Shown one piece after another: positions 13,927-55,556 of a stretch of DNA of 64,000 bases. Location of the stretch: the NCBI GenBank assembly GCA_026770705.1, contig JANJGN010000150.1:806001-870000 (forward strand), read 5' to 3'. Below the pieces are notes generated by a model. The model did no database searches, had not been told where the DNA came from, and was given only the letters and a program-made list of their open reading frames with translations. How positions within the stretch are numbered: the stretch's first letter is position 1; each line of letters starts with the position of its first letter. This DNA is from Isurus oxyrinchus (lineage: Eukaryota). The position numbers and the translations under genes were made by a program.

Positions 13927-13994
13927 ATCGGGGGGTCAGTAGGAAGGGAGCTCTGCAATGTCAGAGGTGAACTATAAAGGGTGTCTGTACTTAC

Positions 13995-14291
13995 CTTGTA
14001 CAGTTAGTACGAGGGTCCGCTCCGATGAAACAGATGGATATCTCACTCTGCAGCTGAGAGTGTGTCCGTGGTGTTTGAGTGATGGGATCAGGGTCAGAAC
14101 AGAAGTATAGGTCAGAGTGACACCATGCTGAGTTACAGTGTTTGAGACTGATCCAGGTACGTCAGTGGGAATGTCCCAGGTTAAGACAGGTGCTGCTGTT
14201 CCATTGCACGTTGTGTTGAAGGTGCAGCTCACATCCACACGCTTTCCTGCAATAATTTCAGCAGGGAATATCGTGGGTTGATCTGTGAAAT
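13995..14291 (-). CDS. Gene A C2-set Ig exon (Siglec domain 2)
   Basis: 297 nt, phase 1-1; CTFNTTCNG with the extra Cys, LTW, LSCRV. Confidence 0.92.
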
Positions 14292-15014: not shown

Positions 15015-15380
15015 CAGAAATGTGAAGCTGGGTTACAGGATAGTAGCTATATCTATTTCTGCTGTCAAATTCTATTCTGAAATAATAAGGTCCTGCATCT
15101 TCCCGTCTGATGTTGTTTATAATCAGAGAACAGTCGCCATCTTTCAGGTCTCCAGACAGCCGGGTCCGATGGTGGAACCGTGGTAACTCGTGACTGTGAT
15201 CCTTGGAGTGAAAGGCTATAGACGATGTTCCCCGTTTCTCGTTATTAAACCAGACTCCATTTCGTGGTTGGCTTTCCAAATGTGATGGATAACTGTAATG
15301 ACATGGAATCTGTACACACGAACCTTCCTGCGCTGTCACCTCTCGTGGAGTGTCACCTTTCCACTCTTGTGACAGTCCAA
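15015..15380 (-). CDS. Gene A V-set sialic-acid-binding Ig exon
   Basis: 366 nt, phase 1-1; EGSCVQIPC...GDCSLII...DAGPYYFRIE has the Siglec Cys pattern and essential Arg. Confidence 0.93.
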
Positions 15381-16680: not shown

Positions 16681-16890
16681 AGACAGCCGGGTCCGATGGT
16701 GGAACCGTGGTGACTCGTGACTGTGATCCTTGGAGTGAAAGGCTATAGACGATGTTCCCCGTTCCTCATTATTAAACCAGACTCCACCTCGTGGTTGGTT
16801 TTCCAGACACGATGGATAACTGTAACGACACGGAATCTGTACACACGAACTTTCCTGAGCTGTCACCTTTCCACTCTTGTGACAGTCCAA
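16681..16890 (-). pseudogene. Truncated, frameshifted duplicate V-set exon in a gene A intron
   Basis: Close copy of the 5' part of 15015-15380; 17-nt deletion between GGTGACA repeats; homology stops at TRLS. Confidence 0.88.
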
Positions 16891-18713
16891 CTAGGGAGAG
16901 AAATATCAATATTTAACTCTGGATGGTTTGTGGATCCACTGAACCCGATATTTACAGATGAGGCTGAATTGGGAGGATGGTCAACACTGAGGACGACGAG
17001 ACTAGGAGCGGTGATCGATATTCCACCTCTCACACATATCCTGACGAGGCTTGCCAATAAATTTTGGATTGTGGTCTTTATTGATCTCTCTGGGCACATA
17101 AAATAAACTGAAAATGTCCCCATAGGGGTGGGATTTTCTGGCCCCACCCACTTCCATGATTGTCCGGTCCGGCTGAAAGCCAATGGATTTATGTCTGTCC
17201 CAGTCTCAGAAACTATCCCATCAACTCAGTTCATGACATAACATTGAAATATGCAGAAAGATTCAACAATATTGGCAGTTTCAAGGGAGCTGCAACATTA
17301 CACCTGCAGGAGAATGCAAGTCTGTCAGACTCCTTGCATTAAAATTAATACAATCCAACTTTGCCACGCTATCTTGAGCCTTAAATGGCCAATAATTTCT
17401 ATGCCTTCCAGGTTCATTTGCTCTCTTCTAATTTTGGCTGTGCATCTCTCTCTGTTGAATCTCCTCTCGGGATCCCATCCCCTGCCATATTAGTTTAAAG
17501 CCTCCTCAATTGCATCAAGGGTATAATGTCAATTGAAACCAGGGACAACATCAAAGAATGACAATCACACAGATCAATGTGAGCAATTAAAGAAACCTCC
17601 AGACAATTTTGCCACCACAAGATCTCGACATAACAGCAGGTTACCTCTACGCTTTAGAGAATCAAATATTCAACAGATCTATACACTTATGTAATTGTCA
17701 AGAAATATGAAAATGATACCAGGAACCTCTTGTTCCCTCTCCTTCTCAAAGATCCATCCCTGCAGCAGGAGCCTGAAGAGTTACTGATGTGGGGCTTAAT
17801 TTATCAGATTGTAGAATGATCCGGAACAGAAGGATGCCAGAAGGCCCATCGAGCCTGTGCTGGGCCTTTGAAAGATCTGTCCAATTAATCCCACTCTAAC
17901 CTCTGCTCTCTCCTCCACAGCCCTGCAAAATGTTACCTTCAAGTATTTATCCAGTTCCCCTTCTGAAAGTTCCTGTTGAATCTGCTTCCACCGGCCTTTC
18001 AGGCAGTGAGTCAATGGTCTCTCTCTGAGCTGCAAAGTGCTAATGTTCTGAGAACTTTAAACACTGCAGCAGATCAGAGACAATCATGATAACTCAGAAT
18101 ATTTGACAGTTTTACACACGGACAGCTTTGCCTTCCTTCTCTCTTTCAGTTATCTTGCTCCCTTATTGAAGTATCTAGCAAGGTGAGAATGGACAGGAAG
18201 TGTGACACTGAACAGCCTGTCTATTCTAGGAGCTGCTGTGCTGTCTTCATGGGAAATTCTGACAAAATCAGCAAAAGAGACAAAATTTCAGGGCATTGTT
18301 ATCCGAGTCCCAGCATCAGGATAGACCTCATCCCCCAGTTGGTATCCCTGAATCTCTATTCAGCCGATCGCTCCCCTGTCACTGGCTGAGCTACACTGGC
18401 TCCCAGTCCAGCAATGACTCAAATTTCAAATTCTCATCATTGATTTCTTACCCCACCATCCCCCCTCTACACTCCCGATCCCTGTAACCTGCTCCAACCC
18501 TAAAAACCTCTGAGATCTCTGCTCTCCTCCAATTCTGCTGTCAGACAGGGAGTCAGTGTATACCACTGAGCACAGGGGTGATGGGTGAATGGGACTTGGT
18601 GTGAGTTTGTGCACTGGCTCACTGCTGAATCGGTTCCCAATCACAGCTCAATAAGAATGATCTTTTACAAAGACTATTAGCCATAAACCTGTCCGAGCTG
18701 ACGATGTTATTAC

Positions 18714-18753
18714 CTTGGAGAAGTGACAGGAGGAAGTAGGATTTCCTGATCAT
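18714..18753 (-). CDS. Gene A signal peptide exon (MIRKSYFLLSLLQ); exon extends to 18795
   Basis: CAAG|gtaata phase-1 donor; acceptor ctctttcag at 18796-18797. Confidence 0.82.
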
Positions 18754-19203
18754 TTTCCACTCCCAGATATTTCATAAGCTTCTGACTCTCAAACTCTGAA
18801 AGAGAAAGGAGTTAATGAGACCTCACCTCTTGTCCGACAGCTCTCAAGAGATCAGAACTGCTTTTGGACAATGTCTTGACAGACTAATTTGATTCTCTGT
18901 GGGATGATAGGTGCTCTGCAGAGAGTTACAAGGCTTTTAGAAAGACAAACGTTGAAGGATTTGCATTTCTATAGCACCTTTCACCACCTCAAGACGTCCC
19001 AAAGCTCATGTCTCTGCACTTCCCTCATCCCTTGAGCTAGAAAGATGTTCTGTACAACAGACTTGAGTCTCACACCCAGATCTCAATAATCAGTAGAAAT
19101 CTTTCAAAGGCATGAATCATTGGAATCTGTCTTTATAAAGTCACAACATCAACAAAGGACGGTGTTGGTGGTGGAAGTGAATTCCAATCGTTCCGTTACT
19201 TAC

Positions 19204-19345
19204 CCAGGACCTGTCCGACTGCTCGCCTGGGGAGGAACTGCCCACACGCTCTGCTTGGGCTGAATGACCTCTTCCTGTGCTGCTCCCTCTGTATGTTTAA
19301 TTAGAAAGGGTGGATGTGTCACTGTGAGACAAAATGAGGAAGTGG
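19204..19345 (-). promoter_or_regulatory. Putative promoter and non-coding exon 1 of gene A
   Basis: TGG|gtaagt donor at 19203; PU.1-like AAAATGAGGAAGTG at ~19331-19344; module repeated four times in the window. Confidence 0.55.
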
Positions 19346-21965
19346 GTAACCAGTGAGAAGATCGAGGATGTTTTGTGCTCTCAGCAAAACGTTTACCATG
19401 TGATGATCTGTCAGCTCAAATTTGGGCAGCTGTAGTCATGAAGCTTCTCCATTGGCTCCGTGGGTTTAGACTCCTCCCCCTCACCTCGGAGGCTGAAACT
19501 CAGGCGATAAGAGTTCCCAATACAGGTCTCTGGCCTTATGATACATTTCAACGATCCCTGTTATCATTACGGAGGGAGTGCTGCACTGTCAGCGGGAGTT
19601 TACTGTGGGATTGCTGCTCTATCAGAGGGTCAGTACTGAGGGAGTGCTGCACTGTCAGAGGGTCAGTACTGAGGGAGTGCTGCACTGTCGGAGGGTCAGT
19701 ACTGAGGGAGTGCTGCACTGTCATAGGGTCAGTAATGAGGGAGTGCTGCACTGTCAGAGGGTCTGTACTGAGTGAGTTCCGCACAGGTGGAGGGTCAGTA
19801 TTGAGGGGGTGCCGGACTGTGGGAGGGTTTGTACTGACGTAGAGCGGAGTGCGAGGAGATATCCTTTCATGACAAAGTTTAACTGGAATTTATTTAAACA
19901 CAATTCTTGTACTGTGTGTTATTGCAAAAGAAAGGATTTGAGGAACTAACTCTTGTTCCCGTAAGCCTAAAAATAATTTTCACTGATTTCTATGATTTAG
20001 CATTGAAACCTCCCTCTTTGGGCACCAGTCTTGATTGAAACAACTCGCACAGCACTGTGGGAGGGTGAGTACTGAGGGAATGCTGCACTGTGGGAGGGTG
20101 AGAACTGAGGGAGTGCTGCACTGTGGGAGTGTGAGTACTGAGGGAGTGTTGCACTGTGAGAGGGTCAGTACTGAGGGAGTGCTGCACTGTGGGAGTGTGA
20201 GTACTGAGGGAGCGCTGCACTGTGGGAGTGTGAGCACTGAGGGAGTGCTGCACTGTGGGAGAGTGAGTACTGAGGGAGTGCTGCACTGTCAGAGGGTCAG
20301 TAATGTGGGAGTGCTGCACTGTCACAGGGTCAGTAATGAGGGAGTGCTGCACTGTCACAGGATCAGTAATGTGGGAGTGCTGAACTGTCGGCGGGTCTGT
20401 ACTGAGTGAGTTCCGCACAGTCAGAGGGTCATTATTGAGGGGGTGCTGGACTGTGGGAGGGTTAGTACTGAGGTAGAGTGGAGCGTGAGGAGATATCCTT
20501 TCATGGCAAAGTTTAACTGGAATTTATTTAAACAGAGAGTCTTGTACTGTGTGTTATTGCAAAAGAAAGGATTTGAGGAACTAAGTCTTGTTCCCGTTAG
20601 CCTAAAAATAATTTTCAACGATTTCAATGATTTAGCAATGAAACCTCCCTCTTTGGGCATCAGTCTTGATTGAAACAACTCACACAGCACTTCGGGAGAG
20701 TGAGTACTGAGGGAGGGCTGCACTGTGGGAGAGTGAGTACTGAGGGAGTGCTGCACTGTGGGAGCGTCAGTACTGAGGGAGGGCTGCACAGTGGGAGGGT
20801 GAGCACTGAGGGAGTGCTGCACTGTGGGAGGGTGTGTACTGAGGGAGTGCTGCACTGTGGGAGGGTGAGAATTGAGGGAGTGCTGCACTGTGGGATCGTC
20901 AGTACTGAGGGAGTGCTGAACTGTTGGAAGGTCAGTAGTGAGGGAGGGATACAGTGTCAGAAGATCAGTCCTGTGGGAGTGCTGCACTGTCAGAAGGTGT
21001 GTACCGAGGTAGTGCTGCACACAGCCAGACAATGCCTTGGTTATGATGTGTCCACACAGCAGGACTGGGGAGCACCAGGTATAAGGAAAAGTTTCAGCTT
21101 GCTGAGGAGAAGAAGGAGAATCTCTCGTTCCAGGTTTCTCTCCGTACATTAAGAAGCAGGCATGCCGATGTTTCATTGCACTCTGTCTGCTGATGGGAGT
21201 CCGCTTGGAAATTGCTGTTTGTGCTGATGGAAAGAATAAGCTTTTCATAAATCGAGGGATTGAGTACAAACACAGGGAGGTTATGCTGAACATTTATAAA
21301 GCTCTGGTTAGGTCACAACTAGAGTATTGTGTCCAGTTCTGGTCTCCTCACTTTGGGAAGGAAGTGAGGGTCCTTGAGAGGGTGGGGAGGAGATTGAGCA
21401 GAATGGGTCCAGGGATGAGGGATTTTAGCTACAAGGTTGGGTTGGAGAAGCTGGGGTTGTTCTCCTTGGAGCAAAGGAGATTGAGGGGGGATCTGATCGA
21501 GGTGTACAAGATGATGATGGGTTTAGATACGGTAGACAAAGAGAAGCTGTTGCCATTAGCTGATGGGACAAGGACTGGGGGACACAGATTGAAGGTTTTG
21601 GGCAGAGGGGGATGTGAGGAGGAACTTTTTTACACAGCGAGTGGTAATGAGCTGGAACTCACTGCCTACAAGGATGGTGGAAGCGGAGACGATGAACGAT
21701 TTCAAAAGGAAATTGGATGGACACTTGAGGGGAAATAAACTCACAGGGATACGGGGATAGAGAGGGGGAATGGGACTGAGTGGATTGCTCTACAGAGAGA
21801 CAGCATGGACTCAATGGGCTGAATGGGCTCCCACTGTGCTGGAATGCCTCTCTGATACGACGAAGGTGATTCTAACCAGGACACTGACCAGTTTCATTAC
21901 AACTTAACCCAACATCACACATTATTTGTCCGCACTGACTGACCAGATTGTTGCTGTACAAAGCT

Positions 21966-22105
21966 TCAAACAGTCTGTCGACTTCCTTTCACTGTTTGTC
22001 TCTCCCAGACACAGACTCCAGTGATAGTGATAACCACAGCCACAAGGAATATCACAGCTCGTATTCCCAGGATCAGGATCACGTGCAGAATCTCTCCTCC
22101 ACTGT
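21966..22105 (-). CDS. Gene C TM + short-tail exon with intramembrane Arg (YSGGEILHVILILGIRAVIFLVAVVITITGVCVWERQTVKGSRQTV*), activating type
   Basis: Acceptor gtgttctctag; phase 1 matches the C2 donor at 23767; Arg codon at 22061-22059; TGA at 21968-21966. Confidence 0.85.
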
Positions 22106-23766
22106 CTAGAGAACACACAGAAAGAAATCATCACTGACTCTCCGCTTTCAATCTCTCACTCTGGCTGAACAATCAAGCTTCATATCACTGCAACATTTGC
22201 TGTAATATTGACCCATCCACTGGGATTCAATGTGGAATGAATGTTTTCATTGTAAACACTCCAAGAGTGGACAATCGGAACTTTCCCCTTAGCGTGGAAC
22301 ATTGGTGAGAATGGATCATTGTGCTGTTGGACTCCCTGTCCAATGTTTCTCTCCATCGCTGTGTACAGGATTGTGCTGTAGAAAATTCTGGAAATGTTTA
22401 GTGCAGGGTGGAAATCCATCTCGGATGCGTGTGCGAATCGGGCAGGATCGAGATGGACTCCCCCACGGACTTACACACCCCGCTAAATAAACAGTTCCAG
22501 TCTTTACCCAGAGAGAGGGGAGAATGTGGAACTCACTCCCACTGGGAGTGGTTGAGGTGAACAGTATCGATGTATTTAAGGGGCAAGATGGTCGGTAACC
22601 AGAGGGGCACAGATTGACGAACCGGAGGGGGAGATGAGGAGAATTTGTTTTGACAGAGCGAGTTGTTGTGATCTGGAAGGTGCTGCCTGAAAGGGCGGTG
22701 GAAGCAGATTCAATAGGAACTTTCAAAAGGGAAATTGGATAAACACTTGAAGGAGGAAGATGGGGGCAAAGTGGAGTGGTGGTTAGTGGATCTGATTGGA
22801 TAGAACATTGAAAGACCTGGCACAGGCACAATGGGCTGAATGGCCTCCTACTGTGCTGTATCATTCTCCGCTTCCATGATCTCTCCCCCAGTCAGTAACC
22901 ACTCCAGATCCCTCTTGAAGGTGACAGAGAGACAGCAACCACCACACCCACTGACAGCACATTCCCGAGGATCCCTACTCTCTGGGAAAAGATGAACTCC
23001 CCAACATCCAGCCTATTCCTGCTTCCCAGAGAGTGTAAACACTTCAGGGAGGCGCTGAGGAAGTTTTCAATAAAATGACATCAAATCTACCGTTTGAGAA
23101 ATAATTGAATTCCGATGAACTCCCAGCTTGTGTAGCAAACTGGGAAGTAGATTTGCTTGAAAAGCTGGGAAACACAAGGATTAAGTGCTACAATGCCACC
23201 ACTGGTGGGAGGCTGTAACTACAGTGTGACGTTTACATAGGCAGTCATCATTATAAACAGGGGCTTTGGACATAATGGGCACGGAAATAGTGAGAACAGG
23301 ATGTAAGCTTTTCATCAGCAGGAATTCTCTTACTAAACCTCTCCACCTCTCTCTTACTCTCAGATTCACAAAAAAATCACAGAATCAGATAAAGAGGAGT
23401 TGGGACTAGTTATTCGTCAATGGGTTAGGTTTCAGGTAGCTCCTTAAAGGGAGAGAGAGAGTTGTAGAAGCAGAGAGTATCTATGAGTGCCTCTATGCAT
23501 CTGAGTGTTTGTACGAGTAATTTCCATATTCTTCTATAAATATGAATGGGAACACAAATCCCAGAATTCAGCCCACGCTCCAGTGCAGTACTGAGGGAGG
23601 TCAGGTAACCCATCAGGGAGTCTTGTGCTAGTGTGTTTGTTTGTGAGTGTGTCTTTGTGTGTGGTCATATATGTGTGTCTGCACGTGTCTATTTAGGTCT
23701 GTACGTTTGAGGGTGTTTGTGTAGTATTCGAATCTGAGAGAGATGTTGAAGTCTGTGTACACTCAC

Positions 23767-23919
23767 ATTCCACAGTAATGGTTATGAACCCCTCCACTGC
23801 TCCATGTTCATTCTCTGCCACACACTGATAGTCTCCAGTGTCCCTGGATGTAACGTGAGGAATCACCAACCACAGCTCATTGTTGGAACTTGTTCTATTC
23901 ATTTGGACATTAAGATGTC
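23767..23919 (-). pseudogene. Gene C 5'-truncated stalk C2 exon
   Basis: 3' half (NRTSSNNELW...ITVE) matches the 282-nt C2 family; donor intact, 5' half and acceptor absent. Confidence 0.85.
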
Positions 23920-24442
23920 ATGGCAGGAATCAAGAAGCCCGTTCACAGGATTACCAACAGAAAGTGAACAACAATTTATACTTAATGGGAAGACAGTGCT
24001 GATTGGTTGGCAAGTGGTCTCTGATAGGTGGAGGTGTTGCCGTGGAGAATGCTGTGTGCGAGATGTAAAGTTTAGACAGCTTGTCTCTTCATTCAGCAAT
24101 AATCATATAAAGATCAATTAACTTCTATCGACTGTGAAGCATTTTGAGAGGAATGAGAATGTGGATACTGAGAATGGGCTGCACTGTCAGAGGGTCAGCG
24201 CTGAGGGAGTGCTGATGTAGAATGAAAGATGTCGGTACAGTTAATGCTTTTCATCATTGATATTAAAGTGATTTTTAGAGGTTGCTTTAGGACTGAACTG
24301 GAAGCTATCACCAGGTTATTGAGAATCAGACAGTGTGTTATAATAAGCTGTGTTTTGTGTTATTATGTAAACGTCACAGTTTGTGTTATTTCCCACTGAG
24401 TGTTGGATGTGAATTGTTGAGTAATTATAACACAGCACTTAC

Positions 24443-24816
24443 CAGAAACGTGAAGCTGGGTTACAGGATACTGGCTGTAACTATTCCTGCTGTCAAACTC
24501 TATTCTGAAAAAATAAGGTCCTGCATCTTCCCGTCTGATGTTGTTTATAATCAGGGAACAGTCGCCATCTTTCAGATCTCCAGACAGCCGGGTACGATGG
24601 CGGAATCTTTGATCCCTGTGATTGTGACCCTCGGAGTGAAAGGCTATAGACCATTTAGGCTGTGGGTTCCCATCTATTCCTTTCAACCAGATTATGCACG
24701 TGATCTCCCTACGAAATTTGATAAGTAACTGTAATGACATGGAATCTGTACACATGAACCTTCCTGTGCTGTCACCTCTCGTGGAGTGTCACCTTTCCAC
24801 TCTTGTGACAGTCCAA
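24443..24816 (-). pseudogene. Gene C V-set exon with 1-nt frameshift
   Basis: 374 nt; the frame reaches TAA after ...GRSRA near 24694; the other frame continues IIWLKG...YFFRIE with Arg retained. Confidence 0.88.
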
Positions 24817-25519
24817 CTGGGGAGAGAAATATCAATATTTGACTCTGGATGGTTTGTAGATCCACTAGACTCGATATCCACCCCCTCCATCACTGGGGCA
24901 CAGTGGCTGCAGTGTGGACCATCTGCAGGACACACAAGGAACTCCCCAAGGTTTCACAACAGATAGAAGAGAATCCTGGACACAGGAGTGGACAAGTTCA
25001 TTCTACATTGGCTCATGGTCCTCAGGACCCTCTTTAGTGAAGCCAGTCTTCCACCCAACACAGTGTCTACAAGATAGACAGGGAAACTGTGTAAATATCT
25101 CATCTCTCAACACTGAATGGGCTGAGCTTCAGTTTAACTTTCAGTATTTTTAAATTTCCATATTGTGGTTGCTATGGTGAAACTGTGCAGGAAGTGTGAG
25201 GGCTGGACTCTCTGTCTATTCTCACTGCAGCTGTGATGTGGTCGTGGTGATTCTCAGTAAAATGAAACCCTCTGATCTCCTCCATCGCCGAGGTTTAGGG
25301 AGTGAATTCCAGTGCTCAGGTCCCAGGCAGCTGTAGGCACGGCCGCCGGTATTGGAGTGATGGGAATCGGGGGATGGTCAAGAGGCCAGAATTGGAGTAA
25401 CACAGAGACCTGGGAACTTGATTGGTTGCGTTGCAGGAGGTTACAGAGATAAAGAGATAAGAATGATCTTTTACAAAGACTGTTAAATATAAATCTGTCC
25501 AAGCTGACGATGATATTAC

Positions 25520-25580
25520 CTTGGAGAAGTGACAAGAGGAAGTAGATTTCCCGATTATTGTCCACTCCCAGATATTCCAT
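25520..25580 (-). CDS. Gene C leader exon (MEYLGVDNNREIYFLLSLLQ)
   Basis: Paralog of 18714-18795; phase-1 donor; the ATG used by gene A is ATA here. Confidence 0.6.
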
Positions 25581-26008
25581 CCACTTCTCACTCTCAAGCT
25601 GTGAAAGAGAAAGGAGTTAATGAGACCTCACCTCTTGTCCAGCACCTTTCGAGAGATCAGAACTGCTTTTAGACAATGTCTTCACAGACTAATTTGATTC
25701 TCTGTGGGATGATAGGTGCTCTGCAGAGAGTTACAAGGCTTTAAGAAAGACAAACAATGAAGGATTTGCATTTCTATAGCACCTTTCACCACCTCAGGGC
25801 ATCCCAAAGCTCATGTCTCTGCACTTCCCTCATCCCCTGAGCTAGAAAGATGTTCTGTACAACAGACTTGAGCCTCACACCCAGATCTCAATAATCAGTA
25901 GAAATCTTTCAAAGGCATCAATCATTGGAATCTGTCTTTATAAAGTCACAACATCAACAAAGGACGGTGTTGGTGGTGGAAGTGAATTCCAATCGTTCCG
26001 TTACTTAC

Positions 26009-26150
26009 CCAGGACCTGTCCGACTGCTCACCTGGGGTGGAACTGCCCACACACTCTGCTTGGGCTGAATGACCTCTTCCTGTGCTGCTCCCTCTGTGTA
26101 TTTAATGAGAAAGGGTTGATGTGTCTCTGTGAGTCAAAATGAGGAAGTTG
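26009..26150 (-). promoter_or_regulatory. Promoter/exon-1 module of gene C
   Basis: gtaagt donor; TGAGTCA (26130-26136) next to GAGGAAGT (26141-26148). Confidence 0.55.
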
Positions 26151-26656
26151 GATCAAAGTGACAGAGCAGCTCATGTTTTGAGATGTTGGTGAACTGTTAA
26201 CCCTTTGTGTCCTGACCCTGTGTTGATATTTCTGCTCACAGGTGGACAGTCATTGACCAGGAGTTTCTCCTGTGGGTCAGTGGGTTTCACAGCCAAATTC
26301 AGGGGGTCAGAATGTTGTGGGATTCAAGACCCCATTCAGGGGACGTCTGCCCCACAGAGTAGACTGAAACTGCCCAGTGTCAGTACTGAGGGAGTGCTGC
26401 ACTGTCGGATGGTCATTACTGCACTATTGTAAGATCAGTACTGAGGGAGATCTCCACTATTTGAGGGTGAGTACTGAGGGAGTGCTGCACTGTCAGAGGG
26501 ACATTAATCAGGGAGTGCTGCAATGTTGGAGGATCAGTACTGAGGGAGTGCCGCACTGTTGAAGGGTCAGTATTAAGGTGCTGATTTACAAGACAGGACA
26601 ATGGATTAGGAGCCCTCAGAACTCCCCCCGTGATTTCCAATCATTCCGTTACTTAC

Positions 26657-26800
26657 CCCCGACCTGTCCGACTGCTCGCCTGGGGAGGAACTGCCCACAC
26701 GCTCTGCTTGGGCTGAATGACCTCTTCCTGTGCTGCTCCCTATTTGTGTTTAATTAAAAAGTTTGGATGTGTCACTGTGAGTCAAAATGAGGAAGTGCTT
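26657..26800 (-). promoter_or_regulatory. Additional promoter/exon-1 module copy
   Basis: gtaagt donor; TGAGTCA 26778-26784, GAGGAAGT 26789-26796. Confidence 0.5.
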
Positions 26801-30218: not shown

Positions 30219-30335
30219 TTATAAATTCCCATAAACAGAATCCTTGGCAAATTCACAGTTTGCGTAAAGATCATCATCTGTATCAGGATTGACTCCGCGG
30301 TTAGATTTCATTTCCAGATCCTTCTCATCTTTCTT
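30219..30335 (-). CDS. Gene B terminal exon (KKDEKDLEMKSNRGVNPDTDDDLYANCEFAKDSVYGNL*)
   Basis: Acceptor tttctattacag, phase 0, two tyrosine motifs; not in the ORF track. Confidence 0.75.
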   Translation of the reverse strand, partial: KKDEKDLEMKSNRGVNPDTDDDLYANCEFAKDSVYGNL

Positions 30336-30433: not shown

Positions 30434-32010
30434 ATTATTGATACTGAACGGGGTTTGATTATTGATACTGAACGGGGTTTGATTATTGATCCTGAACGAT
30501 GTTTGATTATTGATTCTGAACGGGGTTTGATTTTTAATTCTGAACGGGGTTTGATTATTGATACTGAAAAGGGTTTGATTATTTATTCTGAATGGGTTTT
30601 GATTATTGAATCTGAACGGAGTTTGATTATTGATCCTGAACGTAGTTTGATTATTGATACTGAACAGGGTTTGATTATTGATTCTGAACGGGGTTTGATT
30701 ATTGATACTGAATGGGGTTTGATTATTGATACTGAACGGGGTTAGATTATTGATACTGAACGGGGTTTGATTTTTAATACTGAACGGGGTTAGATTATTG
30801 ATACTGAACGGGGTTTGATTTTTAATTCTGAACGGGGTTTGATTATTGATTCTGAACGGGATTAGATTATTGATACTGAACAGGTTTGATTTTTAATTCT
30901 GAACAGGGTTTGATTATTGATACTGAACGGGGTTTGATTATTGATACTGAATGGGGTTAGATTATTGATTCTGAAAGGGTTTTGATTATTGAATCTGAAC
31001 GGGGTTTGATTATTGATCCTGAACGAAGTTAGATTATTGATATTGAACGGGGTTTGATTATTGATATTGAACGGGGTTTGATTATTGATTCTGAACGGTG
31101 TTTGATTATTGATCCTGAACGGACTTTGATTATTGATACTGAATGGGGTTTGATTATTGATTCTGAACAGTGTTTGATTATTGATTCTGAACGGGGTTTG
31201 ATTATTGATACTGAACGGTGTTTGATTCTTGATTCTGAACTGGGTTTTGATTATTGATTCTGAAAGGGGTTTGATTATTGATTCTGAATGGGGTTTGATT
31301 ATTGATACTAAACGGGGTTGGATTATTGATACTGAGCGGGGTTTGATTATGTATACTGAACGGAGTTTGATTATTGATTCTGAACGCGGTTTGATTATTG
31401 ATACTGAGCGGGGTTTGATTATTAATTCTGAACGGGGTTTGTTTATTGATACTGAACGGGGATTGATTATTGATTCTGAAAGGGGTTTGATTATTGATAC
31501 TAAACGGGGTTGGTTTATTGATACTGAACGGGGTTTGATTATGTATACTGAACGGGGATTGATTATTGATTCTGTACGCGGTTTGATTATTGATTCTGAA
31601 CGGGGTTTGATTATTAATTCTGAACTGGGTTTGTTTATTGATACTGAACGGGGATTGATTATTGATTCTGAAAGGGGTTTGATTATTAATTCTGAACAGG
31701 GTTTGATTATTGATACTGAACGTGGTTTGTTTATTGATACTGAACGGGGATTGATTATTGATTCTGAAAGGGGTTTGATTATTAATTCTGAACGGGGTTT
31801 GATTATTGATACTGATCGGGGTTTGATTATTGATTCTGAACGGGTTTTATTATTGTTACTGAACGGAGTTTGGTTATTGATACTGAACGGGGTTTGATTA
31901 TTGATTCTGAACGGGGTGTGATTATTGATTCTGAACGGGGTTTGATTATTGATTCTGAACGGGGTTTGATTATTGATTCTGATCGGGGTTTGATTATTGA
32001 TTCTGAATGG
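30434..32010. repeat. 24-bp minisatellite (GATTATTGATTCTGAACGGGGTTT), about 65 units, intronic
   Basis: 8-aa periodic spurious ORFs (IIDSERGL). Confidence 0.97.
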
Positions 32011-32143
32011 TGTTGGGTGTGAGTTTGGTTGGGTTTGGGAGTGACTGTATAAAACATTGCAGATACAGGACTGGAGCAGCCATATCAATAACCAGGCTAC
32101 TGGAGCAGCTGAGAGGCTGGGGATCCTGTGGTGTGTGACTCAC

Positions 32144-32248
32144 CTGATTCCTCAAAGCCCAACCACGCTCACAGTTTTCATAAACAGGACCTCGATATTC
32201 ATCAACACGGTGGTTCGATTTGATTCCTGCTTTCCCCTCACCTCTCTT
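32144..32248 (-). CDS. Gene B internal cytoplasmic exon (KRGEGKAGIKSNHRVDEYRGPVYENCERGWALRNQ)
   Basis: Homologous to the terminal exon (KSN; YENC vs YANC); CAG|gtgagt donor; the expected acceptor reads CGG. Confidence 0.55.
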
Positions 32249-33604: not shown

Positions 33605-33701
33605 TTTCTCACACACTTGAAGATGAAGAATCCACTCAGTCCAACACTCAAACAGATTCCAGCTCCAAGCAATCCTGCTTTCCATTCATTGGAATCTCGC
33701 C
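33605..33701 (-). CDS. Gene B TM exon (RDSNEWKAGLLGAGICLSVGLSGFFIFKCVRK)
   Basis: 97 nt, same phases as the gene A TM exon, AA|gtaagt donor. Confidence 0.88.
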
Positions 33702-34967: not shown

Positions 34968-35249
34968 GTTCCACAGTGATGGTTATGAATCCCTCCACTG
35001 CTCCATGTTCATTCTCTGCCACACACTGATAGTCTCCAGTGTCCCTGGATGTAACGTGAGGAATCACCAACCACAGCTCATTGTTGGAACTTGTTCTGTT
35101 CATTGGGACATTAAGATGTCGCCACGTCAGGTTAGAAGCTGGGAAGCTCTCGACAGAGCAGATTATCACTGTAGAATTCCCCTCAATTATATTGATCGAT
35201 GAAGCGTTAATCATATCAAGAGAAGTAATTGAGAGGTTCTGTGGAGCAT
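34968..35249 (-). CDS. Gene B stalk C2 exon (domain 5)
   Basis: 282 nt, phase 1-1, IICSVESFP...YQCVAEN. Confidence 0.92.
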
Positions 35250-35728: not shown

Positions 35729-36010
35729 GTTCCACAGTGATGCTTATGAACCCCTCCACTGCTCCATGTTCATTCTCTGCCACACACTGATAGTCTCCAG
35801 TGTCCCTGGATGTAACGTGAGGAATCACCAACCACAGATCATTGTTGGAACTTGTTCTGTTCATTGGGACATTAAGATGTCGCCACGTCAGGTTAGAAGC
35901 AGGGAAGCTCTCGACAGAGCAGATTATCACTGCAGAATACCCCTCAATTATATTGATCGATGAAACGTTAATCATATCAAGAGAATTAATTGAGAGATTC
36001 TGTGGTGTGT
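35729..36010 (-). CDS. Gene B stalk C2 exon (domain 4)
   Basis: 282 nt, near-identical to 34968-35249. Confidence 0.92.
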
Positions 36011-40564: not shown

Positions 40565-40822
40565 ATTCAGTGGGAATTCTAATGGGCAGAGACTGGGAAC
40601 TGCCCAGGATACTTGTTGCTTCACAGTAGTAGGAGATTTCCTCATCGAATCCATAAGGAACTGTAATAGTTTGACCAGCGAGCGCGAGATTCGTCATCTT
40701 TCCTTGGGAGATCTTAAACCAGGTGAAATTGTGGACTGCTGGATTCCCGTCACTGGAACAACTTAGAGAAATCACCTTTCCTTTTTCCAGTGTCAGCCTG
40801 ACAGACGTGTTGTGAGGAGAAT
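40565..40822 (-). CDS. Gene B C2 exon (domain 3)
   Basis: 258 nt; LSCSSDGNP, FTWFK, YYCEA (CD22/MAG-like C2). Confidence 0.9.
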
Positions 40823-41330
40823 CTTTCAAATACAAAATTATCAACACATTAAACACTGAGTGTGATGGAATTCTCTCCAGTTGCCGGGATGAGTGCGGCT
40901 CCAACAACACTCAAGAAGCTCGACACCATCCAGGACAACGCAGCCCGATTGATTGGCATCCCACCCACCATCTTCAACATTCACTCCCTCCACCATGAAC
41001 GCACATTGTTAGCAGTGTGCAGCATTTTATTAGTGATGATCTTATATTGATGGCCCCTAACTCTTCGTCACTCCGACAAGTGGAGACATCTTCTCCACAT
41101 CTACCCTATCGAAACCCTTTCACCATTTTAAGGACCTCGATGAGGTCACCCCCTCAGCCTTCTCTTTTGTAGAGAAAAGAATCCCAGCTTGTTCAGTCTT
41201 TCCTGATAGCTATAACATCTCAGTTCTGGAATCATCCTTGTCAATCCAACTTGCGCCTTCTCCAATGCCTGATTTAATAGGAGACCGACTCCCCCTCCAT
41301 CACAAGCATGATGTTCTAATCAATACTTAC

Positions 41331-41618
41331 ACTTTACACTCAGAGTAACGGAGCTGACCACTCGATGGCTGGTTTGAGGGTAGTCGCACGTACAGCGGAG
41401 AGTTCGTCCATGATGCTTGAACGAAGGGTTAAAGGTCAGTAGAGCGGAAACCTCACCACCGTTCTCTGTAATGTTGCTGACCGATGAAGTCAGCAATTCA
41501 CTCCAGGTTAGATTGGGGTGGTTATCAGGGCAGGTGTAGAGGCATTTACAGATGATATGTGCAGGAGTCCCCTCCTGTAAATCCTTCAGGAGCACAATAA
41601 CTGGCTTATCTGGAGCAT
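41331..41618 (-). CDS. Gene B C2 exon (domain 2)
   Basis: 288 nt; DAPDKP...CKCLYTCPDNHPNLTW...HHGRTLRCTC. Confidence 0.9.
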
Positions 41619-42179
41619 CTGTAATAGAAAGTTCCAGATGTTAACTGACAAGCAGAAAACAATTTGTATTTGTCCTCTGATTTTTCAATAGGGTCACAGA
41701 CACTCAGAACACAGAAGGAGGCCATTGGCCCATCCAGTTCATGCTGTCTCTCTGTAGAGCAATCCAATCAGTCCCATTCCCCCCGCTCTGTCCTCGTATC
41801 CCTGTGAGTTTATTTCCAATTGTCCGTCCAATTTCCTTTTGAAATTGTTCATCGTCTCCACTTCCACCATCCTCGTAGGCAGCGAGTTCCAGCTCATTAC
41901 CACTCGCTGTGTAAAAAAGTTCCTCCTCACATCGCCCCCCACCCACAACCTTCAATCTGTGTCCCCCGGTCCTTGTACCATCAGCTAATGGCAACATCTT
42001 CTCTTCGTCTACCTTATCTAAACCCATCATCATCTTGTACACCTCGATCAGATCCCCCCTCAATCTCCTTTGTTCCAAGGAGAACAACCCCAGCTCCTCC
42101 AACCCAACCTTGTAGCTAAAAGCCCTCATCCCTGGACCCATTCTGCTCAATCTCCTCTCCACCCAGAAGCAAAAAATCA

Positions 42180-42530
42180 GTTCAGATCAGTACTCTTATC
42201 TCGCAGTTTTACTGGTGTTCTATATTATTCTATACAAGACCAGTTTGGACCAGGACTCTTATCTCGCAGTTTCACTGGTGTTCTATATTATTCTATACAA
42301 GACCAGTTTGGACCAGTACTCTTATTTCCCAGTTTAACTGGTGTTCTATATTAAGCTATACAAGACCAGTTTGGACCAGTACTCTTATTTCCCAGTTTTA
42401 CTGGTGTTTTATATTAAGCTATACAAGACCAGTTTGGAGCAGGACTCTTATTTCCCAGTTTTACCACTGTTATATGTTAAGCTATACAAGACCAGTTTGG
42501 AGCAGGACTCTTATGTCCCAGTTTTTACAG
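42180..42530. repeat. 63-bp minisatellite, about 5.5 units
   Basis: TATACAAGACCAG at 42231, 42294, 42357, 42420, 42483. Confidence 0.92.
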
Positions 42531-43642
42531 TTTTGTCCTCTTGGACACCCTTTCTGAAGCTCTTACATCTTTCCTGAAGTGTGGAGGCCCAGCGTTCTGA
42601 ACAATATTCCAGCTGAGTTCTAACCAGTGATTTATAAAGTTCCCGCATGATCTCTTTGCTTTTAACTCGGTTCCTCAGTCTGTTAACACAAGGAAGACAT
42701 TTTCTTTCTTAATCACCTCAACAAGTTGTCCTTTAATCTTTCAGAATGAGTGCAGAGAGATGCCCAGGTCTCTGCTCACCTACACCTGTCCAAATCATTA
42801 CTGTCCAATATCTGTCTGTATTCATCCTGACAAAGTGCGTCACTTCACACGACACTGCGCTGAACTGCATCAGCCATGTGTCTGCCCACCTCACCCTGAT
42901 CCTGCCCCTCTCATGCCCAATCTCTCCTTATCACTACCCACGGCTTTGCCAAGTTTCATTCCATCAGAAAACATCATCACTGAGGGACACTTAGCGATTG
43001 CCAGCTTCAATGTGTGAGAACAGATTCTGCTCTGCAATTCCACGTAACTCCAGGCTGACATGCTCCAGTTAACACATGGGGATGTGGAGCAGTTGAAGCA
43101 GAAGTGGGAACAACAGTAAAGTTAAAAACGTTTTGATACAAGTGATGATTCTCAGACAGAGCAGCACTCACTCGGCAAAGACCCCCCCAATGGTGCAGCA
43201 CTCCCTCAATACTGACCCCCCAAAGGTGCAGCACCCCTCGGTACTCACCCTCCGACAGTGCAGAACTCCCCCTGTACTGACCCTCCGACAGTACAGCACT
43301 CCATCAGTACTGACCCGGTGACAGTGCAGCACTCCCTCAGTACTCACCCTCCGACAGTGTAGCACTCCCTCAGTACTGACCGTCCGACAGTGCAGCACTC
43401 CCGCAGTACTGATGCTCTGACAGTGTGGCACTCGCTCAGTACTGACCCTCCGACAGTGCAGCACTCCCTCAGTACTGACCCTCTGACAGTGTGGAACTCC
43501 CTCAGTACTGCACCAGATCACATACTGGACTTTGTTCTGACATCTCCTGGAGCAGGAATTCAACCCATGACTGCCTGGCTCTGAGATGAGAACATGACCC
43601 CCTTGTGCTGATAGACTGAGTGTGAAAGGAACTGGGACTTAC

Positions 43643-43999
43643 CAAGAACCTGGAGTTGGACTGGTTGTGTAAAAGTGTGATCTGTGTAGCCCTCCACATC
43701 CACATAAAAGTAATACACATCACTATCTTCAGCTCTGAGACTGTCAATCCTCACCGAACAATTCTTCCCTTCCAAGTCGCCGATTATTTTAGCACGTCCC
43801 ACGAATGTGGCCATCGCATAGTTGGGATCTTTGGTGTATGTGATGGTATATTTCCATCTATACCAATATTTATACCAAGCTCCGTGCAGTGCTGTGTAAG
43901 AGTGGGAAGGAAAGTCAAAGCTACACGGAATAACCACACAAGAGCTGCTGATGGCCCTCCGAGACAGCGCCTTCATAGACCATCCCTCTGACGTCACTC
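43643..43999 (-). CDS. Gene B V-set exon lacking the essential Arg
   Basis: 357 nt; SCVVIPC...NCSVRI Siglec Cys pattern; DSDVYYFYVD where YYFR is expected. Confidence 0.92.
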
Positions 44000-44819: not shown

Positions 44820-44865
44820 CTTGCAGCAAGCTGATGAAGATCAATATCAGACCGACCTCTCCCAT
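44820..44865 (-). CDS. Gene B signal peptide exon (MGEVGLILIFISLLQ)
   Basis: Phase-1 donor CAAG|gtacaa; acceptor at 44880-44881. Confidence 0.85.
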
Positions 44866-49929: not shown

Positions 49930-50211
49930 ATGCTCCACAGAATCTCACATTTACTTCTCTTGAAATGATTAATGCTTCATCGATCAATATAATTGAGGGG
50001 AATTCTGCAGTGATAATCTGCTCTGTCGAGAGCTTCCCATCTTCTAACCTGACGTGGCGACATCTTAATGTCCCAATGAACAGAACAAGTTGCAACAATG
50101 AGCTGTGGTTGGTGATTCCTCACGTTACATTCAGGGACACTGGAGACTATCAGTGTGTGGCAGAGAATGAACATGGAGCAGTGGAGGGGTTCATAACCAT
50201 CACTGTGGAAC
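49930..50211 (+). CDS. Gene D stalk C2 exon 1
   Basis: 282 nt, AG/GT intact. Confidence 0.8.
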
Positions 50212-50975
50212 GTGAGTGTACACAGACTTCAACATCACTCACACACACACACTCACACATGCAAAAACACTCATGTGTAGACACAAACATGCACGCTTAC
50301 ACACAAACATACGTTCAAACACATACACAGAAACACACACAAACTCAACTCANNNNNNNNNNNNNNNNNNNNNNNNNNNNNNNNNNNNNNNNNNNNNNNN
50401 NNNNNNNNNNNNNNNNNNNNNNNNNNNNNNNNNNNNNNNNNNNNNNNNNNNNNNNNNNNNNNNNNNNNNNNNNNNNNNNNNNNNNNNNNACAGACACGCG
50501 CATACACACAAATACAAACTCACGTGCAGAAGTACACACACAAGTGTGAGCTCCCTCTCCTCTCTCAGTTCTGCACTGGAGTCATGGTATCAGCTCCCAT
50601 TCTGTGCTGAAGGAAGGTAAACTCCAGATCAGCAAGACCCTGAATTGGATGAGCAACCTCCTGAACAGAGAAATGTAGATTTAGCCCTCAGTGCTCCATC
50701 GATCAAATACAATTCATTGCCTATCAAGCCCTTGGGGACATCTTGAGAGTGTTAAAGGATGTTTCTTTCATTCTAGAGGGTTAGCAACTCTACTGGTGGG
50801 AGGAAGCAACTGCAGTGTGACAGTTTACATAGGAAGTGTCCATTATAAATATGACAGTAATTTTTCCTGAGGGAAGGTACCTGGAAAAGCATTCCAACAT
50901 CAGATACAGAGAGATGATGCATGGAGTCTTGCTGTGCACTATGCTTGCTCACATTAAAATCTTTATTTCTTTTAG

Positions 50976-51256
50976 ACGCACCCAGAATCTCTCAATTAAT
51001 TCTCTTGATATGATTAACGCTTCATCGATCAATATAATTGAGGGGAATTCTGCAGTGATAATCTGCTCTGTCGAGAGCTTCCCAGCTTCTAACCTGACGT
51101 GGCGACATCTTAATGTCCCAATGAACAGAACAAGTTCCAACAATGAGCTGTGGTTGGTGATTCCTCACGTTACATCCAGGGACACTGGAGACTATCAGTG
51201 TGTGGCAGAGAATGAACATGGAGCAGTGGAGGGAGTCATAACCATCACTGTGGAAC
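50976..51256 (+). pseudogene. Gene D stalk C2 exon 2 with 1-nt deletion
   Basis: 281 nt; ACGCACCCAG vs ATGCTCCACAG; spliced frame stops after ~12 codons. Confidence 0.75.
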
Positions 51257-52115
51257 GTGAGTTANNNNNNNNNNNNNNNNNNNNNNNNNNNNNNNNNNNN
51301 NNNNNNNNNNNNNNNNNNNNNNNNNNNNNNNNNNNNNNNNNNNNNNNNNNNNNNNNNNNNNNNNNNNNNNNNNNNNNNNNNNNNNNNNNNNNNNNNNNNN
51401 NNNNNNNNNNNNNNNNNNNNNNNNNNNNNNNNNNNNNNNNNNNNNNNATAATTATCCACACACAGTCATACACATACAAGCACATACACAGGAAAATACA
51501 CACCCATCTCAAACACACACACACATTCTTGCCCACACATAGACACACACATGCACATACTCTCACTCATGGACAGACCTAGACACACAGACACATGCGC
51601 ATGCGCACACACAGACACATGTGTGCATACACACACAAACACACTCACATGTGCAGAAACACAAACACACAGATACACACACGTGAGTTCCCTCTCCTCT
51701 CTCAGTGCCGCACTGGAGTCTCGGTATCAGCTCCGATTCTGTGTTGAAGGAAGGTAAACTCCAGATCAACAAGACCCTGAATTGGATGAGCAACCTCCTG
51801 AACAGAGAATTGTAGATTTACCCCTCAGTGCTCCATCAATCAAATACAATTCATTGCCTGTCCAGCCCTTTGCGAAATCCTGAGGATGTGAAAGCAAGCT
51901 TCTTTCATTCTAGATGGACAACACCTCTACTGGTGGGAGAATGCAACTGCAGTGTGACAGTTTACATAGGCAGTGTCCATTAAAAATGTGGCATAAGACG
52001 TTATCCTGAGGGAAGTTACCTGGAAATGCATTCAGACATCAGATACAGAGAGATGATGCATGGAGTCTTGCTGTGCAATAGGTTTGCTCACATTAAACAC
52101 TTGATTTGTTTTTAG

Positions 52116-52397
52116 ATGCACCACAGGATCTCTCATTTACTTCGCTTAATATGATTTACGCTTCATGGATCAATATAATTGAGGGGAATTCTGCAGTGAT
52201 AATCTGCTCTGTCGAGAGCTTCCCAGCTTCTAACCTGACGTGGCGACATCTTAATGTCCCAATGAACAGAACAAGTTCCAACAATGAGCTGTGGTTGGTG
52301 ATTCCTCACGTTACATCCAGGGACACTGGAGACTATCAGTGTGTGGCAGAGAATGAACATGGAGCAGTGGAGGGGTTCATAACCATCACTGTGGAAC
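52116..52397 (+). CDS. Gene D stalk C2 exon 3
   Basis: 282 nt, AG/GT intact. Confidence 0.82.
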
Positions 52398-53207
52398 GTG
52401 AGTGTGGAGATACATTTGTTTGTTTGTTGTCTCCGTGGTCTCCGTGGAGCCATTGGGATCGTGTTGTTTTTAATCCAGTTTTCTTCAATCCTCGCTCAAC
52501 CTACGTTATCCACACACCCAATTTTTCCTCTCCCTTTCTGTTTTTGCTCTCGGTTTCTCCTTCAATGGTTGTGAGGACAAGGCTGTCAGGTCTTCGTTTC
52601 CAATCTCCGTACTTGACGACCTTTCTCTCTCTAACTGTCGTGAACAACCCTTTTAATTGCTGAACTTCTCATTCTTTAATTGATAAATATTATATATAAA
52701 TGTTACATGTTGAAATGCAACACCTGTATTCATAAATTGCTTAGAAATTACTAAACATTCAACAGCCAGTGAAGTATTATCGAAGTGAGCTCACTGTTGT
52801 AATGTAGGAAACACAGGTACTGATTTGTGCACAGCAAGATCCCGCAAACCACCGTGTGATAATGAGCTGATAGTCGATTATTTCAGTGAGGTTGGTTGTT
52901 ACATGTGTAGAGACTACATACCCTTTAGGGAGGGAAGCATGTCTCGATGTAGATGTGACTCCAGTCTCAGACACCAGCATGGTTAACTCACACCTGCCCT
53001 CTGAACTGGTCTCCCAGTTTGGGACAAACCAGTGGTTCAGGAGGAAGACCCCCCACCACCTTCTCAAGGGGAAACTAGGGATGGACAATAAATGTCAGCA
53101 TTGCCCGAGAATGAGTATTTAAACACTGAGTGAGTGTATCGCTTCTCGAGATACATCGGAGCATCATTGTAAACCTGTAGTGCAGTAATTAATGGCTGTT
53201 TTTACAG

Positions 53208-53304
53208 GTAGAGACTCCAGTAAATGGACAGTAGGATTGTTCACGGCTGGGATCATGTTGAGTGTTTTCCTGGCTGGAATCTTCATCTTCATCTGTGTGA
53301 GAAA
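53208..53304 (+). CDS. Gene D TM exon, same sequence as gene A TM
   Basis: Reverse complement of 11917-12013. Confidence 0.88.
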
Positions 53305-54181
53305 GTAAGTCTGAAGATTTAACTTGATTTTAATATAAACATTTGCTTCAATGTTCTTTCCTGAAGTCGGTGATTGTTTCCCTTGGGATCAGCACCAGGT
53401 CCCTCTCTGTAAGTGATCCCTGTGTCCACTCTGATCCGGAGAGAACCTTTCATTGTCCTGTATCCAGTAAACAATCACGAGACCCAGAGATTCCTCACTC
53501 TGCACGATTACTCCGGGATAAATATTTGCTTCAATGTTCTTTCCTTAAGTCGGTGATTGTTTCCCTTGTGTTAAGCGCTAGATGCCTCTCCGTAACTGGT
53601 CTCTTTTGTCCCTTACGATCCAGACAGTGTTTTTCATTGCCCGTTATCCAGATGAATAATAATCAGTTGCTGTGATCTGGAAGGTGCTGCCTGAAAGGGC
53701 GCTGGAAGCAGATTTAATAGGATCTTTCAAAAGGGGAATTGGATAAATACTTGAAGGGGGAACATTTGAAGGGCTATGGGGGGAAGAGCAGGGGTGGAGG
53801 GGGGGTCAAAGATATGGCGTGTCATTATAATGATATTATACCTTAGGCTTATTTATTGTACAAGAAACAAAGCACCAATGGCTCACAGGGATTGGGTGAG
53901 AATGTTAATGATTTGTTTATCAAGACTCGGCACGAGAACAGTTATACATATGGAGAAAGATTGAAGGCATCAGAGCCATGAGTGTGTGTTCTGCTCAAAG
54001 CAAAAGTCAAACTAAGATTGGATCACATGACACACTTCCATTATAGTGATGTCACGCTGATACCCCTTATTGGAACTAGAGACAGTCCAGTCGTTGGTGT
54101 AAGGTAACACTGGGCTCTGTGTCTGTGCTGCACTGACTTTCTGCTATATGATAACCACAGTGTGATATTGTGTTATTGCAG

Positions 54182-54263
54182 GAGAAAGACAGCGATGGAG
54201 GAGAGAGTTTCAGGGACCAGTGACATTGTATTGACCCCCAGTCCACTCTCTGTGAAGCACCAG
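54182..54263 (+). CDS. Gene D 82-nt juxtamembrane exon (RKTAMEERVSGTSDIVLTPSPLSVKHQ)
   Basis: Phase 2 to 0, canonical sites. Confidence 0.86.
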
Positions 54264-55307
54264 GTACAGGAGCTGTTTACACTCACTCCAAATCTTCTAT
54301 CTCAGTGTGTAGACAACACATGTCCCAGATTCCCAGCCAGGTTACCCACAGATATCTAACTGTGTAGTCAGATATGGCTCAGTATGTAGCATTGTCTCTC
54401 GCTCCCTCCCCCTCTTCCCTCCATCACTCGCTCTTTGACCAGAAACCTGAACGCAATAATGACAAGGCACCTGATGTCAGTAGTGAGGGAGTGCTGCACT
54501 GTCCTAGGGTCTGTGCTGAGGGAGTGCTGGAGTGTCAGAAGGTCAGTACTGAGGGAGTGTTGCACTGTCAGAGGGTCTGTACTGAGGGAGAGCTAGACTG
54601 TCAGAGGGTCAGTACTGAGGGAGTGCTGCGCTGTCATAGGGTCAGTACTGAGGGAGTGCTGGACTGTCGGACGGTCAGTACTGAGGGAGTGCTGCACTGT
54701 CGGAGGGTCAGTACTGAGGGAGTGCTGCACTGTCGGATGGTCAGTACTGAGGACAGTACTGAGTGAGTGCTGCACTGTCAAAGAGTCCATTTTCAAGGGG
54801 TGCTGCCCTCTTGAAGGGGCAGTTCCGAGGGAGTGCTGCACTGTCAGCAGAGAGCACTGAGAGAACATTGCAGTGTTCGAGGTGCCTCTTTCAGAATAGT
54901 TGTATAATGCTGACCATGTTTACCATCTTATCTGGTCCCATGGCCACATTTCCAACACTGTAGCAGTGTCGCCCTTCAATAAAATTCCTTCATTGGCGTG
55001 AGGTACTTTGTGTGTCTGTGTTTGTGAATAATGGGGCACAAATCTCATGATTGGGATGGTAACATAGGACTTCAAGACTCAGGTCTGCGATAGCGAGAGA
55101 GATTACATGATAAATAGAGAAAGCAAGAGAGAGAGAGAGAAAGAGACACAGAGAAAGAGATTGAAAAAAAGGAGACAGAGAAAGAGAGTGAAAAAGAGGG
55201 TTAAACCCACTGAGACATGACTGACAGTAACGAGGCTGCAGAATAACTTAACCCTATCAGTACCAGTAAATGATGTGAGGATGTCTTCTGTTTCCATTTC
55301 TCTGTAG

Positions 55308-55556
55308 GGTAAACAGAACGTGCTGATTACTGAGCCCCGGAACACAACCAGAGACACAACTAGCGAGGGGGAGACCCCAGCTCCCCGGGATCTCTCTGAA
55401 GGTCCAGTGGGAGGCGATGTTGGACATGGGAACCCCGACAAACCCGACGAGCTTTTCTATGCCAACATCAACTTTTCAAAGCTGCCCAGCGGTGACAGGA
55501 CTGTGCACAGGAGCGAGGACACGGAATACACACAGATCAGGTTCCAGAAAAACTGA
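55308..55556 (+). CDS. Gene D terminal exon with ITIM (LFYANI) and ITSM (TEYTQI)
   Basis: Phase-0 acceptor tttctctgtag; typical CD33-related Siglec tail motif pair. Confidence 0.88.
   Translation, partial: GKQNVLITEPRNTTRDTTSEGETPAPRDLSEGPVGGDVGHGNPDKPDELFYANINFSKLPSGDRTVHRSEDTEYTQIRFQKN

Follow-up and report, generated by a model that had tools for sequence, protein, structure and literature searches.

In inhibitory Siglecs, ligand binding leads to phosphorylation of the ITIM and recruitment of SHP-1/2. Recognition of sialic acid itself depends on an arginine of the V-domain F strand: in MAG (Siglec-4), whose glycan site is made up of the C-C′ region together with strands F and G, the R118A change abolishes ganglioside binding (PMC5150538; this and the other PMC sources are cited from the parts of their text that were available). 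Primate Siglecs mutated at this arginine do not bind sialic acid (PMC6288428, PMC7379906), and one orangutan Siglec-14 carries an Arg to Tyr change (PMC7379906). A review whose available part does not mention sharks describes the Arg as present in virtually all Siglecs, and also records sialic acid binding by some bacterial Siglec-like proteins that lack the canonical Arg (PMC13358205). Siglec-5 binds the GBS beta protein without sialic acid (PMC6288428). In their available parts, a paper on fish Siglecs does not mention sharks (PMC7226832), PMC8455134 mentions Siglecs once, and PMC7916940 has nothing on skate MAG. Here we describe a Siglec-like gene of Isurus oxyrinchus with Tyr at the arginine position, and the subfamily of ‘Tyr-type’ domains to which it belongs. 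Our literature search, with most subscription journals outside its reach, found no published description of this subfamily.

A Siglec-type V domain with tyrosine at the arginine position

The window, as we call the whole stretch of 64,000 nucleotides that was analysed, contains an intact V-set exon with the following features:

43643..43999, minus strand: V-set exon, 118 residues in frame 43997-43644, with AG and GT splice sites
43836..43877, minus strand: aromatic C-C′ hairpin W41-Y54 (WYKYWYRWKYTITY), strands predicted, segment invariant
43704..43706, minus strand: Tyr98, codon TAT, at the essential-Arg position (the Arg of MAG YYFR, R118)

The encoded domain matches Pfam V-set (1.6e-07) and carries the motifs AWYKYWYRWKYTITY and YYFYVD. 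Its only three cysteines, Cys20, Cys25 and Cys80, form the Siglec pattern and, together with the Phe (F97) that occupies the usual F-strand Cys position, are invariant in 25/25 close V domains. By analogy with MAG C37-C165, they would provide a B-E intrasheet pair and a V-C2 link. The closest solved structures by sequence are MAG (E 6e-15) and sialoadhesin (Siglec-1; E 7e-12), and the F-G alignment is gap-free, placing Y98-V-D-V-E-G-Y-T-D-H107-T108 on MAG R118-G-D-L-G-G-Y-N-Q-Y127-T128. A structure model built from an 89-row alignment (pLDDT 88.8) predicts strands C at 36-45, C′ at 48-54 and F at 93-102; it superposes on MAG with Z 18.9 and rmsd 1.4 over 114 aligned residues, and on sialoadhesin and MAG with TM 0.89-0.90 and Z 18.8-18.9. 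A first fold from 20 full-length rows was discarded (pLDDT 67.6, with a helix where the C strand was expected). A homodimer prediction scored 0.06 against a mark of 0.32, and we draw on it neither for nor against a dimer. Splice sites, MAG alignment and predicted fold thus bear out the preliminary description of an intact Siglec-type exon with the Siglec Cys pattern and YYFYVD rather than YYFRxE.

The same description noted an aromatic-rich strand. The aromatic excess is beyond chance: 8 aromatic residues per 14 positions were reached by 1.0% of 20,000 shuffles of the domain, and positions 41-54 hold 8-10 aromatics in all 25 Tyr-type domains as against at most 7 in 260 other Siglec-type V domains. 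The single strand, on the other hand, becomes two strands and a tight turn in the predicted fold. The segment includes W45-x-x-W48, present in 25/25 Tyr-type domains and in 1/260 others. This is also a C-mannosylation sequon, in which large residues at +1 are disfavoured (PMC10154233); the residue at +1 to W45 is Tyr, His, Asn or Phe across the 25 domains, and we set C-mannosylation of W45 aside as a minor lead.

The window domain resembles MAG and sialoadhesin, at ~30% and 24% identity respectively, in the Siglec Cys pattern and, in part, in the G-strand aromatic and Thr. It differs in having Tyr for Arg, no MAG-type N-terminal WxxW, an invariant Trp/Tyr C-C′ hairpin and a tandem YxN tail. 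Judged by strand register and the usual V-set geometry rather than by model coordinates, the side chains of A40, Y/F42, Y44, K49, T51, Y96, Y98, D/E100 and H/Y107 would point outward on one sheet, and K43, W45, W48, Y50 and D93 would brace the hairpin from the other side. On these grounds part of the aromatic run is probably structural, and another part a newly formed surface for binding that lies over the former sugar site.

Such a surface could still belong to a lectin or lipid reader, with a neutral glycan, a glycolipid or a choline-type head group stacked on the Tyr/Trp cluster. Aromatic residues do stack on sugars and trimethylammonium groups, and the excess of them at positions 41-54 is a constant of the family. 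The cluster also lies in the C-C′ region, part of the MAG glycan site (PMC5150538). Against this, about half of the aromatics are expected to face away from the binding side. The TIM and CD300 lipid receptors, moreover, are marked by a WFND motif in the FG loop or by extra C-C′ disulfides; the FG loop here reads DVEGYTDH, the domain has only three cysteines, and no TIM or CD300 entry is among the structure and sequence matches listed for the V domain. We regard recognition of a neutral glycan or lipid as unlikely.

Gene structure and cytoplasmic tail

The V exon belongs to a gene model of 10 exons running from 44865 to 30219 on the minus strand, with an open frame of 637 codons. Besides the V exon, its parts are:

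44820..44865, minus strand: exon 1 coding part, with ATG and a signal-peptide-like stretch (tblastn to P0001; GT donor; covered by RNA-like contigs)
41331..41618, minus strand: C2-set exon with an extra Cys (TCP) as the expected partner of V-domain Cys20
40565..40822, minus strand: Ig domain 3 exon
35729..36010, minus strand: Ig domain 4 exon
34968..35249, minus strand: Ig domain 5 exon
33605..33701, minus strand: transmembrane exon, hydrophobic core without charged residue
32760..32844, minus strand: cytoplasmic exon 1
32144..32245, minus strand: cytoplasmic exon 2 (PVYENC), with weak acceptor CGG-AAG
30219..30335, minus strand: last exon, with DLYANC, terminal SVYGNL (ITIM consensus) and stop

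After a signal-like stretch, the predicted protein thus has the V domain, four further Ig domains and an anchor without charged residues, and its tail carries YENC and YANC and ends in SVYGNL. This is the Siglec architecture of V domain, C2-set stalk, single transmembrane segment and Tyr motifs. Among named proteins, those of white and basking shark come nearest to it; exon order is the same as in P0009 of white shark, which has a V domain 92% identical to that of the window. Cytoplasmic exon 2 is missing from this white shark isoform, and the frame is kept whether the exon is used or skipped. Its CGG-AAG acceptor recurs in 7 of the 9 like paralogs examined and was not located in the other 2. 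An intronic minisatellite lies at 30434-32014 of the window, with 66 copies of a 24-base unit.

The membrane anchor, AGLLGAGICLSVGLSGFFIF, contains no Lys or Arg, as would be looked for in an activating Siglec coupled to DAP12 or FcR-gamma. The ITIM consensus is S/I/V/L-x-Y-x-x-I/V/L, which the C-terminal SVYGNL matches; the YxN pattern within it is also a Grb2-type motif. Signalling through SVYGNL is likely to be inhibitory, as far as the motif indicates.

Conservation among sharks, rays and skates

Database searches returned a tight group of proteins at 62-95% identity to the window domain, with the next matches at or below 40%. None of the matches above 40% identity came from a holocephalan or a bony fish, which is weak as evidence of absence. 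The group gave 25 close V domains (isoforms included) from 14 named species, covering lamniform, cat, carpet, saw and sevengill sharks, sawfish, rays and a skate. Tyr98 is invariant in all 25, as are W41, Y44, W45, W48, K49, Y50, Y54, Y60, M62 and D93, and the segment W[FY][KE]YWxxWKY is kept throughout. The same motifs, including YYFYV, occur in six further skate and ray proteins, and a partial Tyr-type domain left out of the 25 (P0025) also reads YYFYV. Among 188 Arg-type domains, each family-invariant residue except W41 is found in at most 5%. The conservation of Tyr98 in orthologs, which the preliminary description proposed to check, therefore holds across sharks and rays.

The Tyr-type group forms one clade with support of 100/99 in all four IQ-TREE analyses. 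Since Tyr98 and the family residues are common to a single clade spanning sharks and rays, the Arg-to-Tyr change predates the shark-ray split. That split took place more than 250 million years ago. In 16 cross-species comparisons of identity, the V domain was more conserved than domain 2 in 12, tied in 1 and less conserved in 3; among four batoids the V domain keeps 64-70% identity against 55-58% for the next domain, and in carpet sharks domain 3 is more conserved than V.

This age sets the family apart from the primate mutants. Human Siglec-XII (R122C) and ape Siglec-5/14 (Arg to His) are alike in having lost the same residue and kept the signalling tail. In the available parts of the sources, however, the primate changes are recent, single-site and often polymorphic, and Siglec-XII is also gaining null alleles (PMC6288428, PMC7379906), whereas the Tyr-type change is fixed throughout sharks, rays and skates, in a family with about ten further invariant residues of its own. 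Siglec-XII, offered earlier as the parallel, is consequently the wrong model: it is a recent loss heading for pseudogene status, and the Tyr-type domain has long been conserved.

Other conserved residues raise the question of whether sialic acid or another anionic glycan is still bound, the place of the Arg being taken by invariant Lys49 or by Lys43. Lys49 is present in 25/25 Tyr-type domains and Lys43 in 24/25 (Glu in one protein); the counterparts of MAG Y127, T128 and W22 are also largely kept, as His107 in 21 and Tyr107 in 4 of 25 domains (His being an unusual residue there), Thr108 in 22/25 and Trp6 in 24/24. The bacterial Siglec-like proteins offer a precedent for binding without the canonical Arg (PMC13358205). 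However, Lys49 sits on C′, two strands from F in the predicted model, positions 89-118 of the window domain contain no Arg or Lys, and the Arg mutants of MAG and of primate Siglecs lose binding (PMC5150538, PMC6288428, PMC7379906). Anion binding of this kind is, in our view, quite unlikely.

Phylogenetic placement

Loss of the Arg is not rare in itself: among 285 V domains cut from search matches, a sample skewed toward the query, the position is Arg in 188, Tyr in 26, Trp in 35 and another residue in 36, so that 97/285 are Arg-less. A second Arg-less clade, mostly with Trp at the Arg site, was recovered at 99/93 and 99/96, though not from C2 alone; it has ten labelled members, from turtles, frogs, caecilians and teleosts, and one member that retains Arg. 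Sequences assigned to it are P0100, P0105, P0130, P0027, P0029, P0037, P0039, P0085, P0096, P0112, P0152 and relatives. The ‘CD22-like’ Arg-less domains of these animals, which are uncharacterised database proteins and no described family, resemble the Tyr-type domain in Siglec fold residues, a W[YF]xY C strand and C-C′ loop length, and differ in their C-C′ and FG sequences (YP on C′, no WxxW).

With all columns, the Tyr and Trp clades are sisters at 89/86 (FastTree 0.90). Once the C-C′ and Arg columns are removed, this union appears in 0% of bootstrap trees; it is unresolved in C2-only and V+C2 trees and is not rejected by the AU test (p 0.40). We did not accept a single Arg-less clade across jawed vertebrates. 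A tandem YxN tail, found in 8/17 Tyr-type proteins, 4/21 bony Arg-less proteins and 3/45 others, is not diagnostic as a marker of such a clade. It is a tentative and rather doubtful proposal that the two branches would be one undescribed Arg-less lineage as old as the jawed vertebrates, its aromatic face reading non-sialyl self ligands from the start.

Removal of the trait columns instead joins the Tyr clade to MAG at 87/68, a position that the AU test does not reject (p 0.25). The same test marginally rejects descent of the Tyr clade from the Arg-type genes of the shark cluster (p 0.043, with one Arg-type row). MAG is also the top structural and sequence match of the window domain, and three whole-genome searches, two of which scored only part of their candidates, revealed no clear MAG orthologue in the assembly; the best V match is 44% (an Arg-type Siglec-like gene on contig C8) and the best Ig5 match 38-40%. 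The gene might accordingly be taken for a diverged MAG orthologue, or for a glial or epithelial adhesion molecule rather than an immune receptor. Yet the Arg and the N-terminal WxxW of MAG are both absent from the window domain, and the gene lies within a duplicating Siglec cluster and has tails in common with its Arg-type neighbours. We consider this reading very unlikely.

Copies in the genome, selection and splicing

The genome as a whole contains 16 intact Tyr-type V exons, with Tyr in 16/16 (encoded by TAT or TAC), and 94 copies, in two sub-variants, that all break off immediately before Phe97; this single junction points to one break amplified by duplication. These truncations also account for about 100 genome matches that end at residue 96-98, which might have suggested a hypervariable FG loop. 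Arg-type V exons number at least 150 at 85% identity or more, mostly on the same contig set. The Siglec-like cluster is very large, extending over contigs C52, C71, C121, C150, C189 and others with ~110 Tyr-type heads.

We read each of the other 15 intact heads 20 kb downstream. Nine have the stalk and tail design of the window gene (one without domain 2, one broken), four have a five-repeat stalk and an LLYANI-type tail (two with a frame break), and two have a stalk of at least 10 repeats. The tail type of the window gene is also found behind an Arg-type head on another contig. Within the window itself, an Arg-type Siglec gene occupies 6287-18762 on the minus strand. Its V exon is 15016-15372 (YYFRIE); a partial V lies at 16681-16885, and the tail exons are present twice, at 9252-9497 and 6287-6532. 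The minus-strand interval 19204-26761 holds a broken Arg-type V (24366-24838), half an Ig exon and three orphan cytoplasmic exons, and similar debris follows most like paralogs. On the plus strand, 49932-55553 has three Ig exons, an anchor and an ITIM-type tail, with no V exon upstream within the window.

CD33-related inhibitory Siglec clusters are alike in being large and duplicating, with mixed heads, stalks and tails, ITIM-type tails and many broken copies. The Tyr-type head differs from theirs in being nearly constant on its presumed binding face, and it is found in the genome with two anchors, neither of which has a charged transmembrane residue.

Variation among the 16 intact V exons amounts to 10 synonymous and 11 replacement variants (ratio ~0.32, p 0.01), none of them at positions 41-50 or 98, a weak signal of selection within the genome. 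The corresponding ratio for the 30 best-matching Arg-type exons is 0.45, and the 14 truncated copies that are the best protein matches of the 94 have 8 synonymous and 6 replacement variants.

Splicing was seen in four RNA-like runs, which represent one sample and whose RNA nature is guessed rather than on record. Their contigs span the V exon from end to end as well as exon 1, and leave the adjoining unique intron parts uncovered. The joint 41618-43643, from V to C2-set exon across a CT..AC intron, is present in 3/4 runs, 40822-41331, from C2-set to Ig domain 3 exon, in 2/4, and 40822-43643 in 1/4. As the runs are one sample and the contigs with splice joints carry paralog variants, they demonstrate splicing for the family rather than for the window copy; at that level, they speak in favour of transcription of the exon. 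Depths are unequal between runs and permit no tissue ranking. Contigs in all four runs join the 40565-40822 exon type to itself (back 258), as is expected from the tandem stalk repeats of paralogs.

The excess of 94 truncated over 16 intact V exons, the five other intact exons that are letter-identical to that of the window, and the stops or frame breaks of paralogs L010, L012 and L015 could be read as signs of a gene without function that segmental duplication carried along as a passenger. Redundancy is possible for the window copy alone, not for the whole family: invariance across sharks and rays, the open 637-codon frame and the spliced contigs make the passenger reading extremely unlikely. 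Given Tyr invariance and splicing, a kept, repurposed receptor is far likelier than neutral decay.

Ligand and signalling

We therefore favour an old shark-and-ray branch of Arg-less Siglec-like proteins, likely an inhibitory receptor, whose remodelled aromatic face we predict to recognise a host molecule that is conserved and non-sialyl, with a protein the likeliest candidate; taken together, we consider this reading evenly balanced between right and wrong. The earlier proposal of a receptor repurposed for a non-sialic ligand such as a neutral glycan, lipid or protein is strengthened in its first half, the gene having been kept rather than decayed, while the non-sialic ligand continues to be a prediction from sequence.

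In the proposed mechanism, Tyr in place of Arg would remove the salt bridge to the sialic acid carboxylate. From species to species and from paralog to paralog the exposed face stays the same, whereas stalks and tails differ; a host ligand that is itself conserved is therefore likelier than a microbial one that changes fast. Receptors of the Ig superfamily usually bind proteins by a flat, Tyr-rich face such as this, and for this reason we rank a protein as the most likely ligand; a neutral glycan or lipid comes behind it, as does anion binding by way of Lys49. Ligand binding would then lead to phosphorylation of SVYGNL and recruitment of SHP-1/2, and the one head would be presented at different heights, on stalks whose further Ig domains number from 2 to at least 11.

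Significance

The Tyr-type subfamily is real, conserved and apparently undescribed. Its members probably share the build and the signalling of inhibitory Siglecs, but lack the Arg expected of a Siglec, and the automatic names ‘MAG-like’, ‘CD22-like’ and ‘sialic acid-binding lectin’ are probably misleading for these shark genes. As the binding unit is a single small domain for which a revertant and surface mutants are clear, the ligand is directly testable. Known Arg-less Siglecs read as recent losses; a Tyr and an invariant surface kept since before the shark-ray split would instead represent a Siglec-like receptor selected for a different ligand.
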